The notes beneath the pieces were generated by a model, which saw only the letters and a list, made by a program, of their open reading frames with translations, was not told where the DNA came from and did not search any database. A stretch of 20,849 nt of DNA from a virus. The stretch lies in the IMG/VR virus record IMGVR_UViG_3300036835_000152; one strand, 5' to 3'. Below, piece by piece: positions 9,322-20,849 of this stretch (position 1 is its first letter; the number at the start of each line of letters is the position of its first letter). Position numbers and translations under genes: made by a program.

Positions 9322-10047
9322 CTAGGGCCTCAGTCGGAACCGGGCCAGTAGCGCCCGGTGGTCCGAGTGGGTGCGGATCGTCCAGGCCCGGTCCAGCCGG
9401 ATCCGCGGGTCCCGCTTCCACCACACGTAGTCAACCGCCCGGCGGCCGTGGGTGGGCAGCCAGCCGCGGGCCCGGTGGGTGTTGGTCCAGCCGCGGGCGT
9501 ACAGCGGCCCGAGGATCCCGGTGTGGTCGGGCTCGGTGTTGAAATCCCCGACGATGAATCTCAGCCCGTACCGGCCGTCCACAGCGGCCGCCAGCCGCCG
9601 GACGTGCCGCACCGCCACCGCATGCCGCCGGGGCCGGTAGGACGACGGCACCAGGTGGGTGTTGGCCACCACCCGGGAGCGCCACAGCATCCCGCCCATC
9701 GCGTATTTCGGTTTCGCGGTGCTCGGCCCGTTCCCGGGGCCCACGTAGGTCCGCGGCAGCAGCGGTTTCCCGAACGGGTGCCGCATGGCTACCGCCCGCG
9801 GGTTCCACACCAGCGGGGTGGCGGACTGGCCGCGCAGACCCCGCCCGGCCTGCACCCGCCACCCGGCGGCCTTGGCGGTGGCCACCAGGCCGGGCCGGTC
9901 GCCCCACTCCTGCGCGCCGATCACGTCGGCGCGGCGCATGATCTGGCGCAGGTCCTCCCGGGTGCCGTGCGCGCCGGGGTTCCAGGTGGCCAGCACCAGC
10001 ACCAGCGGGGCCAGGTGCCGGACTAGCGCCGGACCGACTCCAGCCAT
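9322..10047 (-). CDS. Endonuclease/exonuclease/phosphatase (EEP, DNase I-like) family enzyme (241 aa)
   Basis: Full EEP motif set in order: LVLATWN, VIGAQEW, ANTHL, GDFN, VDYVWW, SDHRAL. The start is taken at ATG 10047. The upstream part of the 404-aa ORF overlaps the protease in another frame. Confidence 0.85.
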   Translation of the reverse strand: MAGVGPALVRHLAPLVLVLATWNPGAHGTREDLRQIMRRADVIGAQEWGDRPGLVATAKAAGWRVQAGRGLRGQSATPLVWNPRAVAMRHPFGKPLLPRTYVGPGNGPSTAKPKYAMGGMLWRSRVVANTHLVPSSYRPRRHAVAVRHVRRLAAAVDGRYGLRFIVGDFNTEPDHTGILGPLYARGWTNTHRARGWLPTHGRRAVDYVWWKRDPRIRLDRAWTIRTHSDHRALLARFRLRP

Positions 10048-10595
10048 GCGGCCAGCGCCTCGCGCCGCGGCGTCGGTGACGGCGCCACGGTCAGGGTGTG
10101 CTCGCGGGCCACCAGCACCCCGGCCCCGGCGTACTGAGGTGCCGCGGTGGCCGCCACATGGGACAGCCCGCACTGTTCGCGCCACACCACCCGCTGCCCG
10201 TCGCCGCGCGGCACCGAGCGGGACCGGTACACCCGCGCGGACACGCTCCAGCCGGTCAACTCCCCGGCCCGGGCGGCCTCCGCCTGTGGATGCCCGCGGT
10301 CGATGCGGAACGTCGGATACAGGCCCTCGGCGGTCTCCTCCAGCGCGACACAGCGACCGAGGTACCGGTCCCCGTCGTCCCCGACGTGCCCGAGCATCAG
10401 GTTGACCCACCGGCCGCCCTTGGTGCAGTCCCGGGCGAACGCGCCGGGGGTGAACGCCTCCAGGTAGGTCTCCCGGCCGTCGTCGGTCACCTCCTGCGGT
10501 CGACTGTACGGCACGGCCAGGCCGTAGACGGTCCACCCGTCGCCTTGCGGTTCCAGCGCCGGGGCCGCCCGTTCGATGATCAACTCATCCGGCAT
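10023..10595 (-). CDS. HK97-family prohead maturation protease (190 aa)
   Basis: YLEAFTPGAFAR...VNLMLGHV and a downstream S-containing core match the HK97 prohead protease pattern. Follows the portal gene with an 11-nt overlap. Confidence 0.9.
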   Translation of the reverse strand: MPDELIIERAAPALEPQGDGWTVYGLAVPYSRPQEVTDDGRETYLEAFTPGAFARDCTKGGRWVNLMLGHVGDDGDRYLGRCVALEETAEGLYPTFRIDRGHPQAEAARAGELTGWSVSARVYRSRSVPRGDGQRVVWREQCGLSHVAATAAPQYAGAGVLVAREHTLTVAPSPTPRREALAAWLESVRR

Positions 10596-12424: not shown

Positions 12425-14473
12425 TCAGAACACGTAGAACGGCTGTGGCGCCTCGGTCTCCGCCGCCACCACCGCCACCGCCCAGGCGGTCGCCTTCACC
12501 GCGTCACAGCGCACCCCCCGGTGCGCCGGGGCCAGGCCCCCGTCCGCGTGCGCCGCCCAGCGGGTGCCACACACCTGCCCGGCCACGTCCTCGTCGGGTG
12601 AGTGCACCAACCGCCCCGACCGGACCAGCGACCTCAGCAGCGCCAGGCCCCGGCGGGCCCGGTCCGGCGCCTGCACCACCACCTCGGGCCCCAGGTACCC
12701 GGCGGCCTCCGACGCCGACAGCGACGGTCCCAGCACCACCACCGGGCCGATCTCGCGGCGGCCGTCGCCACGCATCGACGCGCCCGCCCAGGAGAACGCA
12801 TCCGCCCGCGACCCGAACGCCGCCCCCCAGGTCAGGATCCGCCCATCCGGGAGCACGGTGGCGGCCGCCGCCGACGCGCCCCTCCCGTACCAGTCCTCCA
12901 CCGCCACCGCCACCGGACGGCCCTCCGACGGCGCCGCATACAGGTCCGCCGCCTGCGCCCACTCCTCCCGGGACACCAGCACCTCGGGGGTGGAGGTGGA
13001 CGGCACCCACCGGCGCACCGGCCACACGTTCAGGTACTGCGCCCGGAACGCCTCCACCGGGTCGTCCTCGTCCGGGTCCTCCGACGCGCCCGCCCGGGCC
13101 CGGCGCAGCCGCGCCTCCAGCAGCCGCTCCCGGGTCGGCGTCCAATGCGGGGATGCCTGCCGCCAGCCGATCCGGTCCGCCAGGTCCGCGTCCCGCGGCG
13201 CCGACCACTCCAGCAGCAGCGACGACGACGGCGAGGAATACCCGGCCAGCAGCGCCGCCCGGCGCACCGGCACCAGCGCGGTGGCCCGCCGGTGCGCCGT
13301 CGAGAACATCACCAACTGCGCGTTCGCATGCTCGGCCAGCGTCGGCTCCAGGCCGTCCTCCACCACCCCCGGCGCCACCTTCCACACCTCGTCGGCCAGC
13401 GCCAGCGTCGCCGAATACGAGTACACCGAGCCGTGCCCGCGCAGCAGCCACCGAGACCCGTCCGGGTGCCCGATCTCCTCCTCGCCGTTGGACTCCCGCA
13501 CCGGGTAGCCCTGCTGCCGCGCCCACAGCCGCGCCGGACGGGTCACCTCCCGGGTCACCTGCCGGTCCTTCGCGGTGTGCAGGATCAGTTGCTCCTCCCC
13601 GAACACCTCCGAGGCGTGCAGCCGCCACAGCGCCAACTGGCGCAGGAACACCGACTTCCCCACCTGCCGGGCCGTGGACACCAGCGCATCCATCCACACC
13701 AGTTGGCCCTCCGCGTCATGCTCCAGCAGCCGGGCGAACGCCAGCCGCTGCCACCAGCGCAGACCCCACCCCCGCTCCAGACACCACGCCACCGCCGCCG
13801 CCCCATGCGACCCCGCCGCATCCGGGTGCGGCAGCGACATCAGCCGCGGCCACGTCGCACTAGGCGGCACCTCCCGCAAATCATCGAGCCACGGCGACGA
13901 ATCCCAGACCGAATCCTCAGGACCCGGCGTAATCACCGGCGGCTCGATATCGGTCGGCTCGAATTGGTCTATGGGGGAGGAATTGTCAGCCGGAGCGCCC
14001 TGGGAAGTCGAGGCCGCCGTCAAAAACCGGGCGCCGTTCTGCGCATTGTCGTCCACGATTTCGCCGCGTTGGTTGTCCCATTTCCCGGCTAGTGCTGCCT
14101 TGCCTGCGGCGTAGATCGCTTGGCTCAGTTCGCGTCCGGCTTTGCGGTTGCAGTGCGCATGGGCTGGCCGTATGTCGGGGGACCGGCCGCCGAGTGCGAC
14201 GGGTTCGCCCACGTGGTCTAGGTCCCAGGGTTCCCAGGGTTGTACGGGGTCGGGGCAGCGGGGGCATGGCTGGGGCAGGCGTTGCTGCCAGCGGTTGCGG
14301 AGTTCGGCCCATTCTCGGCCGTTGATGGGTCGGCCTGCGATGACTCCGGATCCCATGGTTGCCGATGATGCTCCGGTTTGGCGGGCCTGTCGATTCTCAC
14401 AACCCATTATCCGATTCGACCGTGTAGTGCGTCGTCGCGCGCGAACGGTGACGGAACAGACCGCATCGACCAC
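12425..14473 (-). CDS. HNH endonuclease domain fused in frame to the terminase large subunit (up to 682 aa)
   Basis: N-terminal CPRC...WDLDHVGEPVALGG...AHAHCNRKAG (HNH, about 14135-14266). Then a Walker A STARQVGKS (about 13652-13672) and a terminase ATPase/nuclease body. No stop codon separates the two parts. The start is uncertain (GTG 14473, ATG 14407 or ATG 14356). Confidence 0.85.
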   Translation of the reverse strand: MVDAVCSVTVRARRRTTRSNRIMGCENRQARQTGASSATMGSGVIAGRPINGREWAELRNRWQQRLPQPCPRCPDPVQPWEPWDLDHVGEPVALGGRSPDIRPAHAHCNRKAGRELSQAIYAAGKAALAGKWDNQRGEIVDDNAQNGARFLTAASTSQGAPADNSSPIDQFEPTDIEPPVITPGPEDSVWDSSPWLDDLREVPPSATWPRLMSLPHPDAAGSHGAAAVAWCLERGWGLRWWQRLAFARLLEHDAEGQLVWMDALVSTARQVGKSVFLRQLALWRLHASEVFGEEQLILHTAKDRQVTREVTRPARLWARQQGYPVRESNGEEEIGHPDGSRWLLRGHGSVYSYSATLALADEVWKVAPGVVEDGLEPTLAEHANAQLVMFSTAHRRATALVPVRRAALLAGYSSPSSSLLLEWSAPRDADLADRIGWRQASPHWTPTRERLLEARLRRARAGASEDPDEDDPVEAFRAQYLNVWPVRRWVPSTSTPEVLVSREEWAQAADLYAAPSEGRPVAVAVEDWYGRGASAAAATVLPDGRILTWGAAFGSRADAFSWAGASMRGDGRREIGPVVVLGPSLSASEAAGYLGPEVVVQAPDRARRGLALLRSLVRSGRLVHSPDEDVAGQVCGTRWAAHADGGLAPAHRGVRCDAVKATAWAVAVVAAETEAPQPFYVF

Positions 14474-14517
14474 GTTCCAGTTTCCTTTTCCAGTTAGTTA
14501 CCGTTCTATCCGTATTG
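14474..14517. promoter_or_regulatory. AT-rich segment (about 41% GC) with two TTCCAGTT direct repeats
   Basis: TTCCAGTT at 14475-14482 and 14488-14495. This is the lowest-GC stretch I noticed in the window. It directly abuts the palindrome array and the HNH-terminase start. Confidence 0.6.
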
Positions 14518-14606
14518 GGGCCACATCCGTGTGGCCCTGAGGGCCACATCCGTGTGGCCCAGGGTCCACAGATTTGTGGCCCTGTAGGGCCACATCCGTG
14601 TGGCCC
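14518..14606. repeat. Array of four tandem 20-21 bp palindromes, GGGCCACA-TCCG-TGTGGCCC
   Basis: Perfect copies at 14518-14537, 14541-14560 and 14587-14606. One variant (GGGTCCACAGATTTGTGGCCC) at 14562-14582. Spacing is 21-25 bp. Confidence 0.95.
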
Positions 14607-14929
14607 TATCCCGGGCCTCGGACCAGCGGGAACGTGAACCGGTACACCGCCCGGTGGCCACCTCCGCCGGGGCCAATCTGCTCGATCACCTTGGCGTCCA
14701 CCAGTCCGTTGATCGCCCGACGTACGGCTTCCTTGGCGGTCGGGGTGTACTCGGGATATCCGAGCCATAGGGCCAGGTTCTCCCACCCGCCGTAGTAGAT
14801 CCCGGCCTCGGCCCGCTCGGTGTCCCGGTCCAGCGCCATGTCCGCCATGGCCCAGGCAACGATGCGCTCGGGGTGGGTCAGTTTGGGCCCGATCAGCGTG
14901 ACCAGGCGGAACATTTGGCGCCCCATCAT
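14606..14929 (-). CDS. Small winged-helix DNA-binding protein (107 aa). Candidate small terminase, or origin- or operator-binding protein.
   Basis: ATGA overlap with the upstream stop. WENLALWLGYPEYTPTAKEAVRRAINGLVDAKVIEQIGPGGGGHRAVYRF fits an HTH plus beta-hairpin wing. Its stop codon abuts the palindrome array. Confidence 0.65.
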   Translation of the reverse strand: MMGRQMFRLVTLIGPKLTHPERIVAWAMADMALDRDTERAEAGIYYGGWENLALWLGYPEYTPTAKEAVRRAINGLVDAKVIEQIGPGGGGHRAVYRFTFPLVRGPG

Positions 14930-15192
14930 CGGGGCCTCGGGCGGCGCATTCGCTCCAATTCGAGTGACCTGACCAGTAGGCAGCGTTCGCATAGGCCGCC
15001 GGGTTCGGGGTCGTCGGCGGGCAGCCGGGCGCCGCATATCCGGCACCGGTTGGGCATGTTGGCCCGGGCGGCGTGGAATTCCCGTACGGGCGCCCCGGTT
15101 TTCAGGTTGCGGCATTTCTCGCCGGGTTTCGCGTTGCACGCGGGGCAGGGGTGTCCTAATAGGATCCGGCGCCATTCAACTGGTATTCCCAT
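14926..15192 (-). CDS. Double zinc-ribbon protein (88 aa)
   Basis: HPCPACNAKPGEKC and CRICGARL...GGLCERC motifs. Tight packing with both flanking genes. Confidence 0.65.
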   Translation of the reverse strand: MGIPVEWRRILLGHPCPACNAKPGEKCRNLKTGAPVREFHAARANMPNRCRICGARLPADDPEPGGLCERCLLVRSLELERMRRPRPR

Positions 15193-17798: not shown

Positions 17799-18030
17799 GG
17801 TGCCGCCTCCCCGAGACACTGGCCGAACACCACCAGTACCGCTCGGCCGCGGTGCCCGCAATCGCCCGGAACGGGGGTGGCGGGCTGGCCCTCGGTGCGC
17901 TAGCCGCTCGGCGGCCGCCGCGGGCCGGGTGTGGCCCGGCGCCGTGTTTCGCTCCCGTAGCGCGAACCTGTCGCGTTAAGGTGCCGCGTGTCGGCGCCCA
18001 ACCGGGGCGCCCACTCGGGGAGGAAACACG
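17799..18030. promoter_or_regulatory. Divergent intergenic control region (putative lysis-lysogeny switch)
   Basis: 232-bp gap between divergently oriented genes. Contains a hairpin CGGGCC-N6-GGCCCG (17921-17938), GGCGCC-N7-GGCGCC (17993-18011) and a TAAGGT -10-like hexamer (17977-17982). No promoter could be assigned with confidence. Confidence 0.45.
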
Positions 18031-18404: not shown

Positions 18405-18926
18405 ATGGCAACCGAGATCGTCCGGTGGTGCGACCGGCACCTAGCGACCAAGGATGAGCGGGTGCCGGGTGAGTCGTGGTCATTCCAGATCACCAGCCCG
18501 TCCGGCGGCAACGTGACGGCCAGCGTGGACGCCTGCCCGGACTGCGCGGCGCCCTACGCCGAGTTGGTCGAGTACCTGCGCGAGCACGGCACCCCGGGCG
18601 GCCCGATGGACACCGGCCCGGTGGCCCGGGCGTCGAGCGTGCGCCGGTCCCCGAGACCGGCGACGGTGGGCACCGACACCAGCCCGCCGATCGGGAAGGC
18701 CGCCTACGGCAAACCGGCGCCGCCGTGCCCGGTGTGCGGGTTCCAGTCGTCGTCCAAGGCGGCGTTGCAGGGTCACCTGCGCGAGCACCACAACACCGAC
18801 TGGTTCCGGGCGTTCGGCTTGACCCCGCCGCTCACCTGCGACCTGTGCGGGTGGGGCTGTGCCACCGGCACCGGTCTGGCCGCGCACCTCCGGATCACTC
18901 ATCCCGATCACGCCTCGGGCGGATAG
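18405..18926 (+). CDS. Protein with two classical C2H2 zinc fingers and an Lsr2-N-like N-terminus (173 aa). Candidate repressor or silencer.
   Basis: CPVCGFQSSSKAALQGHLREH (C-X2-C-X12-H-X3-H) and CDLCGWGCATGTGLAAHLRITH (C-X2-C-X12-H-X4-H). The start is 2 nt after the upstream stop. Confidence 0.75.
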   Translation: MATEIVRWCDRHLATKDERVPGESWSFQITSPSGGNVTASVDACPDCAAPYAELVEYLREHGTPGGPMDTGPVARASSVRRSPRPATVGTDTSPPIGKAAYGKPAPPCPVCGFQSSSKAALQGHLREHHNTDWFRAFGLTPPLTCDLCGWGCATGTGLAAHLRITHPDHASGG

Positions 18927-19405: not shown

Positions 19406-20821
19406 CTACCGGCGCCACTCGATGATCAGGTCCCGGTCCCCGTCGAACGGGGTGTGCCGGGTCGGCGCGCCGCGCAGCGCCACCCGGGCACACAGGTGGT
19501 CGATCACCGCCCGCTTGCGGGCCAGCGTCAGGCCCGCCCACGCGGCCGCGGCACCGGCGCCGGTGAGGTCGGCCAGCACCTCCACCGGCTTGGCCACCTG
19601 CTCGCGGGCCTCCGCGATCCGGGCCTCCAGCGCCGCCAACTCGTCGCGGTACACCGCGGCGGTCATGTCGTACTCGGCCTCGGACACCTCCCCGCGGGCC
19701 TTGCGGGCCACCTCAGCGGCCCAGCGGGCGCCCATCGCGGTGTGGGCGGCCTCCAGGTCCGCCAGGCCTTCAGCGGCGCTGTCGTCCACCAGCGCCCCGG
19801 CCGCGTCGGCCCGCTCCAGCCGCCCGACGATCACGCCCTCCAGGTAGGCATCCACCTCATCGGTCTGCCGGTAGCAGTGACGGCCGGTGGCGCAGGCGTA
19901 GGCCCGGGACTCGGGGGCGTTCTTGGGGCCGGGGCGCCCGCGCAGCACCTCCCCGCACTCGGCGCAGGTGGCCAGGCCCGCGGCCAGGTAGCGCCGGGCG
20001 TTGGTGTACGACGTGCGCCGGGCCGGGTCGGTCAGGATGAACTGCACCCGCTCCCAGGTGGTCCGGTCCAGCACCGGCGGCCAGTCGGCGGCACCGAGGA
20101 TCTGGCCGCGGTGCACGCGCAGGCCCGCCAGGTGCGGGCGTTTCATCATGGTGCCCAGGTTGGGGCCCGCCCAGCGGGCGCCCTCGGGGGTCGCCACCTC
20201 CCGGGTGTTGAGGTCGCGGGCGATGCTGGCCAGGGTCTCGCCGCCGATGATCCGCTCGGCCACCTCCCGCACGATCGCGGCCTCGGATGCGCGGATCTCG
20301 GTCATGCCCGGCTCATACCCGAACCGGCGCCGTCCGCCGTGGAACTTCCCATGCTCGGCCAACTGTCGGTGCCGCCTTCCTGCGCGTCGGGACTTCTGAT
20401 CGGACTCGGCCGCGGCCAGCGCGGACTGGATCCGGAGCATGGTCACGTCGGTGACCTGTTGGGCGCCGGTCCACAACTCGGTGCCGGTGTGCTTGCACGC
20501 GGACCACAGCCGCTCCAGTTGGATGGGCTGGCGGGTGAACCGGTCGGCGTGCCACGCGATCACCGCCCGGTACTGGCCGGACGCGATATCGGCCAGCAGC
20601 CGCTCGAAATCGGGCCGGGTGACCGACTCGTCCCAGGCCGAACGGTTGTCGCCGTAGTAGACGATCTCGGCGCCCGGGTGGGCGCCCGCCATGGTGGCGG
20701 TGTTGTCCTCATGCTGGCGCTCGTTCGCCAGCGTCCACCCGGCGCCGTCGCCGGACCGCTTGGACAGCCGGGCGTAGGACGCCACCGGCCTGAGGTCGGT
20801 GGCGGTGGTCGTGATGGTCAT
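19406..20821 (-). CDS. int: Large serine recombinase (integrase, 471 aa)
   Basis: N-terminal resolvase catalytic motif ASYARLS plus RSAWDE...FERLL. Recombinase domain, then zinc ribbon CAECGEVL...YACATGRHC, then a long C-terminal coiled coil. Confidence 0.95.
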   Translation of the reverse strand: MTITTTATDLRPVASYARLSKRSGDGAGWTLANERQHEDNTATMAGAHPGAEIVYYGDNRSAWDESVTRPDFERLLADIASGQYRAVIAWHADRFTRQPIQLERLWSACKHTGTELWTGAQQVTDVTMLRIQSALAAAESDQKSRRAGRRHRQLAEHGKFHGGRRRFGYEPGMTEIRASEAAIVREVAERIIGGETLASIARDLNTREVATPEGARWAGPNLGTMMKRPHLAGLRVHRGQILGAADWPPVLDRTTWERVQFILTDPARRTSYTNARRYLAAGLATCAECGEVLRGRPGPKNAPESRAYACATGRHCYRQTDEVDAYLEGVIVGRLERADAAGALVDDSAAEGLADLEAAHTAMGARWAAEVARKARGEVSEAEYDMTAAVYRDELAALEARIAEAREQVAKPVEVLADLTGAGAAAAWAGLTLARKRAVIDHLCARVALRGAPTRHTPFDGDRDLIIEWRR

Positions 20822-20849
20822 GCGGATCCTTCCACGGTGGCCCCGCGGT
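20723..20849. repeat. Second copy of the 127-bp terminal overlap (identical to 1-127)
   Basis: Exact identity with the window start. Confidence 0.97.

Follow-up and report, generated by a model that had tools for sequence, protein, structure and literature searches.

A palindrome array and an A-rich patch beside a small winged-helix gene as a candidate lambda-like replication origin in an uncultivated temperate phage-like element

Here we describe an array of four palindromes and an adjoining A-rich patch in the viral DNA IMGVR_UViG_3300036835_000152 of IMG/VR (20,849 nt; "the window" below means this whole stretch). The two follow the gene for a 107-amino-acid (aa) winged-helix protein, and we consider it probable that together they form an iteron-type, lambda-like replication origin of a circular temperate phage-like element, with the ~107-aa protein as a minimal initiator. 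The element has a 127-nt terminal direct repeat (1-127 and 20723-20849), which indicates that the assembly is circular and 20,722 bp long, and its lineage is one of small, uncultivated temperate phages with a high GC content. In the proposed mechanism, dimers of the winged-helix protein would bind the four palindromic repeats with their period of ~23 bp, and the resulting nucleoprotein complex would distort the DNA. The adjacent patch (14474-14517) would then open on supercoiled DNA and the host replisome would be loaded, no helicase, primase or polymerase being recognised among the element's own genes. Binding, unwinding and initiation are all steps that we infer. What is new here, on the best-supported reading, would be a lambda-like iteron origin with a minimal, single-domain initiator.

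The array spans 14518-14606, and its four 20-bp palindromes (no strand assigned) follow each other at start-to-start distances of 23, 22 and 24 bp. Numbered along the direction of transcription, iterons 1 (14587-14606), 3 (14541-14560) and 4 (14518-14537) are exact copies of GGGCCACATCCGTGTGGCCC, the only three in the window. Iteron 2 (14563-14582) is a variant, GGTCCACAGATTTGTGGCCC, found once. Its left arm contains GTCCACA, which we take to be the core of the actinobacterial DnaA box; this likeness alone is not significant. Iteron 1 overlaps the winged-helix stop codon TAG (14608-14606), which belongs to this first palindrome as it reaches TAGGGCCACA....TGTGGCCCTA, while iteron 4 adjoins the A-rich patch. 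When up to three mismatches were allowed, the pattern GGGCCACANNNNTGTGGCCC found only the four array sites in the window (shuffle mean 0.51). Seven of the eight window copies of the exact half-site GGGCCACA fall inside the array, with ~2 expected by chance, and no further full site occurs anywhere in the window, making the array a single locus. The lone half-site outside it, at 17930-17937 in the divergent early-promoter region, is probably without meaning, since a chance count of this order is expected. The initial annotation, made from the window alone, had reported three perfect palindromes and one variant at 21-25 bp spacing, starting at the stop codon of the 107-aa gene, and all of this holds. 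The range that it gave for the array, 14474-14606, does cover the palindromes but also takes in the patch, and its "about two helical turns" is close, a 23-bp period slightly exceeding two turns. It further placed the array ~45 bp upstream of the HNH-terminase gene. That distance fits the longest open reading frame (ORF; GTG 14473), but the likelier start is ATG 14356, 161 bp away, which aligns with relatives (L017) and is used by gene callers on sibling contigs.

Next to the array, the 44 nt of the patch (14474-14517, read on the minus strand) have a GC content of 40.9% vs 71.3% for the window, the lowest of any 44-nt stretch in the whole 20.8-kb contig. Both this and the two short repeats in the patch had been pointed out before (as ~41% GC and a 13-bp distance), correctly: the repeats read AACTGGAA, or TTCCAGTT on the plus strand, and the latter occurs exactly twice in the window, at 14475 and 14488, 13 bp apart. 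On the coding strand the patch is rich in A and poor in T, with fractions of 0.44 A and 0.16 T in the best window of 45 nt that follows the array. By composition it is thus a candidate AT-rich DNA-unwinding element beside the repeats, its unwinding role being a prediction. A patch motif, TAG-RAAC...GAACCA, recurs in coding and non-coding settings on direct reading of the sequences; because it does so whether or not the region codes, its recurrence fits selection on the DNA itself. Weak evidence from base composition also places the cumulative GC-skew minimum at ~13500-14500 of the window. Further downstream, direct reading finds a GC cluster, CGTTCGCGCGCGACGACG, at 14430-14447 (minus strand). 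Relatives have a GCGCGCGA-type cluster at this position and then a DnaA box, TGTGGACAA; the window is without such a box.

A homologue search with the winged-helix protein of the window alone found only itself. Relatives were reached via RecT loci and then via a winged-helix alignment built from those loci; a metagenome scan with this alignment returned only an already known contig. Every related locus with the winged-helix gene that was read (~17 elements: L019, L020, L021, L023, L083/84, L085, L086/87, L088, L089, L090, L091, L092, L093, L094, which is incomplete, L095, L098 and L099) has an array of three to six repeats after that gene. The array follows directly in L019, L083/84, L085, L086/87, L088, L089, L090, L091, L092 and L094, with one extra gene between in L020, L021 and L093 and two in L095. 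The best period was 22-24 bp in 12 of the 13 arrays measured, and the repeat sequences differ between elements. After the arrays comes an A-rich, T-poor patch with 11-13-nt direct repeats, in most loci at a gap of 0-21 nt and with 51-62% AT vs a background of 30-37%. What comes next varies: an HNH gene, a Zn-binding protein (L085) or a 68-aa ORF (L091). No HNH or terminase gene was found within the fetched flanks of the L085 and L098 arrays, and this occurrence without packaging genes nearby argues for the origin reading.

The repeats differ together with the protein. Across ~14 elements, the half-site of the repeats co-varies with a tetrad of residues immediately ahead of the conserved AVARAV recognition helix. 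Thus TSER (L020), KAER (L095) and VAER (L094) go with GACCTGAC, TAER (L092) with GCCTGAC, TIER (L091) with GACCCGAC, TSKR (L093) with GAGGTGAC, GARR (L083) with GGGTGAC, AAKL (L021) with GAGGTATC, TAKE (the window) with GGGCCACA, TAKS (L086) with GCCACCT and SAKV (L089) with GCTACC. This gives a small natural table of helix residues against half-sites, in which, for example, TGAC is preceded by CC where the residue is Glu and by GG where it is Lys, Arg or Gln. The pairing of xxER with CCTGAC was predicted before L094 and L095 were read and held in both. In the close relatives L020 and L021 the winged-helix proteins differ mainly in the stretch of the helix tetrad, and the repeats differ too. 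Because repeat sequence and recognition-helix residues co-vary across relatives, the winged-helix protein of the window is the likely binder of its palindromes. The proposal that the sites serve a dimeric protein and that the winged-helix protein binds them thus gains support from the palindromic form and from the co-variation, and the check proposed with it, that relatives should keep the array while its sequence co-varies with the protein, came out positive, with the array kept in ~17 elements and the co-variation seen across ~14. A second small winged-helix gene lies between the first and the array in one group (L020 11148-11470, L021 11313-11634, L093 1931-2167 and L095 1489-1728). Its recognition helix, GAWKRCSDLA, stays constant while the repeats differ, and we therefore do not regard its product as the determinant of specificity. 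In the near-identical L086 (4309-4392) and L087, at the same coordinates, one repeat differs in both arms (GCCACCT...AGGTGGC vs GCTACCT...AGGTAAC), and L089 (1797-1886) is of the GCTACC/GGTAAC type throughout, its helix starting with SAKV vs TAKS. These differences look like a switch of repeat and protein specificity in progress.

Could the palindromes instead act as RNA, as a series of terminators or as elements that stabilise the mRNA where the early operon ends? The array begins at a stop codon, and its minus-strand transcript has a very stable predicted fold (-75.6 kcal/mol, z = -6.7). A terminator scan, however, gave 0 sites, with no U-tract after any of the hairpins, and the array region had no match in Rfam. 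The relatives speak against such a role as well: the L088 repeats are mostly direct and without dyad symmetry, those of L021 have a 2-nt centre unable to form a loop, and in the long-form homologues described below the repeats are translated. Since some relatives' repeats lack dyad symmetry, recognition of duplex DNA is favoured over an RNA hairpin, and a constant period of 22-24 bp is a property of duplex DNA. We regard hairpins as a very improbable explanation.

To characterize the proposed initiator (14606-14929, minus strand, its ATG overlapping the stop codon of a Zn-ribbon gene as ATGA), we turned to its predicted structure and its family. The AlphaFold model (pLDDT 88.5) has winged-helix topology, and in weak Foldseek matches to solved structures the best TM-scores, 0.55-0.56, were to a plasmid RepA_N initiator domain. 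Sixteen of 36 homologues match Pfam HTH_36 (PF13730; best E = 6.6e-6), one of them, P0011, carries a precomputed HTH_36 annotation, and the longer homologues weakly match the PHROG families "replication initiation O-like" and "replication initiation protein". Neither the protein nor the homologues scanned matched a terminase small-subunit family. As the homologues match HTH_36 and the longer ones weakly match replication initiators, they argue for an origin, although the indications from RepA_N TM-scores, HTH_36 and PHROG are weak. This is a large family: 1325 homologue clusters (at 50% identity) were counted at E up to 0.001. TubR was also among the top structural matches, and centromeres too are repeat arrays, which raises the notion of a partition centromere bound by a TubR-type winged-helix adaptor. 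No partition NTPase was found in the precomputed Pfam calls on the sibling contig or in scans of selected ORFs, however, and the serine integrase means that the element integrates; we find a centromere hardly credible here. An attP site was considered as well and rejected, the serine integrase gene lying 5 kb away.

A second line of evidence comes from DnaA boxes, scored as 9-mers with at most one mismatch to TTGTCCACA or TTATCCACA. The array zones of the loci, 5.8 kb in all, hold 26 such 9-mers vs 21 in the other 98 kb, a 21-fold enrichment; controls with permuted motifs had a mean of 1.1, and 1 of 1000 reached 26. The 9-mers lie to either side of the repeats in 9 of 13 loci, and further perfect boxes are found in L093-L095. 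This enrichment around the relatives' arrays argues for the origin reading and suggests that host DnaA is probably also used in most relatives, though not visibly in the window. In one sub-lineage, 2-3 DnaA boxes lie in the 3' end of the second winged-helix gene. Separately, L019 (11797-11830), L020 (11580-11620) and L021 (11744-11780) contain 6-9 trinucleotides in a row that have A in the middle, as in TAG AAC AAC CAG GAG AAC AAC CAT CAG, resembling the DnaA-trio of bacterial chromosomal origins. Such NAN runs in the patch were significant against shuffles only in these three loci and not in the window, and we dropped the pattern as a general feature of the family.

The long-form homologues (190-300 aa) provide a third line of evidence. 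Their best internal peptide repeat recurs every 8 aa, or 24 nt, in 17 of 25 (binomial p = 1.8e-10), beginning directly after the winged-helix domain. At the DNA level, the ORFs of L098 and L099 enclose four palindromic repeats of 24 nt together with a patch of GAGGAACCA repeats. In a Pfam scan of the long-form C-terminal parts and of the L098 and L099 neighbours, an upstream UvrD-like helicase in L098 and a MUG113 domain in L099 were the only matches, neither of them informative. Placement of repeats and patch inside the gene recalls phage lambda and argues for an origin. In the lambda record, four 18-bp iterons at 39034, 39054, 39078 and 39101 (spacing 20, 24 and 23) are followed by an A-rich tract, all inside the O gene, and the part of O before the iterons encodes its N-terminal DNA-binding domain. 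The lambda iterons have been described as 19-bp imperfect inverted repeats bound by O dimers (PMC7466680). The window shares with ori-lambda the four palindromic repeats of 18-20 bp at a period of 20-24 bp (PMC7466680), their position directly after the DNA for the initiator's N-terminal winged-helix domain, and the strand-asymmetric A-rich tract that follows them on the initiator coding strand; the long forms, like O, hold both inside the gene. It differs in that its protein ends at the first repeat, and so comprises a DNA-binding domain only, without the C-terminal helicase-loader domain, and in that the element has no P-like gene. Homology to O is not demonstrable, the host DNA is high in GC, and most relatives add DnaA boxes. 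The initial annotation had offered origin iterons with an unwinding element as one of several open readings; the conserved layout, the DnaA-box enrichment and the long-form placement now favour it.

Iteron plasmids offer a second comparison. In RK2, oriV combines DnaA boxes and iterons with an unwinding element that contains 13-mers; the initiator TrfA binds the A-rich strand of this element (PMC4980987). Theta plasmids of this kind (RK2 oriV/TrfA, F, P1 and pPS10) resemble the loci described here in having DnaA boxes, tandem initiator sites, a GC-rich segment, an AT-rich element with 12-13-nt repeats and, next to these, the gene for a winged-helix initiator (PMC4980987). Plasmid Rep proteins, in contrast, have two winged-helix domains and bind direct repeats as monomers, whereas the palindromes here imply dimers of a protein with a single winged-helix domain of ~100 aa, and the window element is an integrating phage, not a plasmid. 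The initiator sites of iteron plasmids have a period of ~22 bp. A third comparison is with Streptomyces plasmids pWTY27, pFP1 and pFP11 and the RepA loci of extrachromosomal mycobacteriophages, high-GC actinobacterial replicons whose Rep binds direct or inverted repeats beside its own gene (PMC3583192, PMC7157519). These Rep proteins are 320-520 aa long and unrelated in sequence, and the layouts differ, that of pWTY27 being one long 105-bp inverted repeat.

We next weighed regulation of transcription, a possibility that the initial annotation had also left open. Here the array would be an operator or activator site at which the winged-helix protein switches the downstream late HNH-terminase operon or blocks early read-through. 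Its position is suitable, between the early recombination genes and the packaging genes, and a promoter-like site (TCGACA, 17 nt, CATCAT; 14365-14393, minus strand) follows 125-240 bp further on. This site, a weak hit of a consensus scan, ends 9 nt before ATG 14356 and may give a leaderless late transcript. Winged-helix proteins of the MarR and Fur types are mostly regulators, and co-variation suits any specific binder. On the other hand, the window has no further full site, the downstream gene varies (as in L085 and L091), and in the long forms array and patch lie inside the ORF; regulation would also leave unexplained the DnaA-box enrichment and the conserved strand asymmetry of the A-rich patch. 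The absence of other full sites and the coding position of the long-form array thus weaken this proposal, and we judge it unlikely. A dispersed operator set, as in the stoperators of cluster A mycobacteriophages or the inverted repeats of phiC31, was rejected, with all four full sites in one array and one stray half-site.

The remaining proposal of the initial annotation, an analogy to lambda cosB, depends on where the genome ends. The probable cos region lies at 13971-14030 (minus strand) and reads CCGGTTTTTGACGGCGGCCT, CGACTTCCCAGGGC and GCTCCGGCTGACAATTCCTCCCCCAT in succession; an alignment with L017 places this motif within an insertion of 54 aa that separates the HNH domain from TerL. L015 and L016, sibling contigs that come from other samples, both terminate at window position 13997, and L015, at 20,736 nt, equals the circle plus 14 nt, an overlap that assumes its unseen part to be collinear with the window. 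Downstream of the HNH domain, contigs L023, L083, L084, L086, L087, L089 and L090 have a CCG-T(5-8) run and stop 9-45 nt beyond it, four of them at 23-26 nt, and L019, L020 and L021 stop shortly after the HNH domain. In TerL relatives at ~40% identity, a T-run, a spacer of ~35 nt and TCTCTCCCC lie directly upstream of the HNH-TerL ORF, and many IMG/VR contigs start at that two-part motif. From the contig ends of many independent assemblies, rather than at read level, and from the conserved motif, the genome ends are thus probably at ~13997-14010, some 520 bp (at least 508 bp) downstream of the array and beyond the HNH domain. By comparison, lambda cosB lies no more than ~200 bp from the nick, towards the end that is first to be packaged.

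These ends bear on the possibility of a cosB- or cosQ-type accessory role in packaging for the array, with the winged-helix protein as the missing small terminase that positions HNH-TerL at cos. The likeness to cosB and gpNu1 is that both have an array of sites for a winged-helix protein near a terminase gene. Moreover, the element lacks a recognisable small terminase gene, and the winged-helix gene occupies the position typical of terS, immediately before HNH-TerL. Most short-form relatives have their array 0.4-0.65 kb from the end of the contig, and that of L023 is found beside HNH and not beside the winged-helix gene. Against this, the probable ends are ~520 bp off on the far side of the HNH domain, and about 13 distant relatives with at least 900 nt upstream of cos/HNH-TerL have no tandem array there. 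L085 and L098 carry winged-helix gene and array with no HNH or TerL gene in the fetched flanks, the homologues tested match replication initiators and no small-terminase family, and DnaA boxes have no role in packaging. The cosB analogy thus does not fit these data, and we consider a packaging accessory distinctly unlikely. A wrong lead is thereby removed, cos probably lying elsewhere, within the HNH-terminase ORF. That ORF (12425-14356, minus strand; PHROG terminase large subunit 1.3e-21, HNH 0.0027) is a downstream neighbour outside the proposed origin. With cos inside this continuous ORF, cutting would split the gene, so that the two ends of the virion DNA would carry HNH and TerL, respectively, until circularisation restored the gene; an in-frame read-through is also seen in L088 (36% identity). 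In the relatives at ~40% identity HNH and TerL are directly fused, and the cos motif precedes the ORF. No account of a gene that spans cos turned up in a literature search.

Several observations weigh against the origin reading. Many iteron-type origins, though not all, have DnaA boxes beside their repeats. The window array zone has no DnaA box at up to one mismatch, nor do the L019 and L088 zones, and the L092 locus is incomplete. The winged-helix protein of the window has no Pfam or PHROG match of its own (none to HTH_36 at E up to 10), its Foldseek matches are generic winged helices, all at E > 0.01, and an hhalign comparison of the family with lambda O was not significant (E = 0.11). As a single domain of 107 aa, the protein has no visible helicase-recruiting part. 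Co-variation tells what binds the repeats, not the purpose of binding. In short-form relatives the array is mostly just upstream of the HNH gene, and in L023 it lies 1.1 kb from the winged-helix gene, still next to HNH; the array may have a secondary role in packaging or late expression. A bolder proposal, which we think has only a slim chance of being right, joins the two functions. A stand-alone winged-helix protein of ~100 aa, corresponding to the DNA-binding domain of O-type initiators, would fire a lambda-type origin with host factors only, and in short forms the same complex, ~0.5 kb before cos, would mark the concatemer for HNH-TerL, replacing the small terminase and coupling replication to packaging. 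If so, there would be a family of minimal initiators (>1300 clusters at 50% identity) with the origin just past the stop codon or inside the gene.

To our knowledge, the replication origins of actinobacterial phages are mostly unmapped. The layout described here provides a sequence rule for locating origins in a large uncultivated lineage: a winged-helix gene, repeats with a period of ~23 bp, an A-rich patch and often DnaA boxes. If the 107-aa protein does initiate replication, it would be about the smallest initiator of the lambda-like type, and the module could provide vectors for high-GC hosts with a compact replicon. In the phage collection searched, no isolate related to this lineage was found by region DNA, TerL protein or winged-helix protein, and the portal protein is only ~25% identical to those of isolate phages.

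Finally, we looked at the remainder of the element and at the occurrence of its repeat elsewhere. All major genes are on the minus strand. The early genes run from serine integrase through an excisionase-like HTH protein, a PD-(D/E)XK exonuclease, RecT and a Hjc-type resolvase to the Zn-ribbon and the 107-aa winged-helix protein, followed by array and patch, the HNH-large-terminase fusion, portal, capsid and tail genes. The Zn-ribbon gene (14926-15192, minus strand; Pfam Phage_zn_bind_8) lies directly upstream of the winged-helix gene in nearly all relatives read. At 20,722 bp, the genome is very small for a tailed temperate phage with an integrase, RecET-like genes and a full head-tail module. 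A viral-sequence scan for the exact palindrome motif gave no match, and in genome contigs GGGCCACATCCGTGTGGCCC gave 13 single matches, in Marinimicrobium and Eremiobacterota, in no related context. It recurs at several unrelated places in Marinimicrobium agarilyticum (L001, L010, L011 and L013) and in an Eremiobacterota metagenome-assembled genome (L004, L006, L007 and L009). These are probably dispersed palindromic repeats of those genomes with a coincidental likeness to the phage repeat. Two genes of the element are of an unusual kind for their place. Divergent from the early operon, at the place expected of a repressor, 18405-18926 (plus strand) encodes a 173-aa protein with classical C2H2 zinc fingers (Pfam zf-C2H2_4, 3e-8), which are unusual in a phage regulator. 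An Exo_endo_phos domain (Pfam, 3e-10) is encoded at 9322-10536 (minus strand), between portal and capsid, the usual place of a protease or scaffold.

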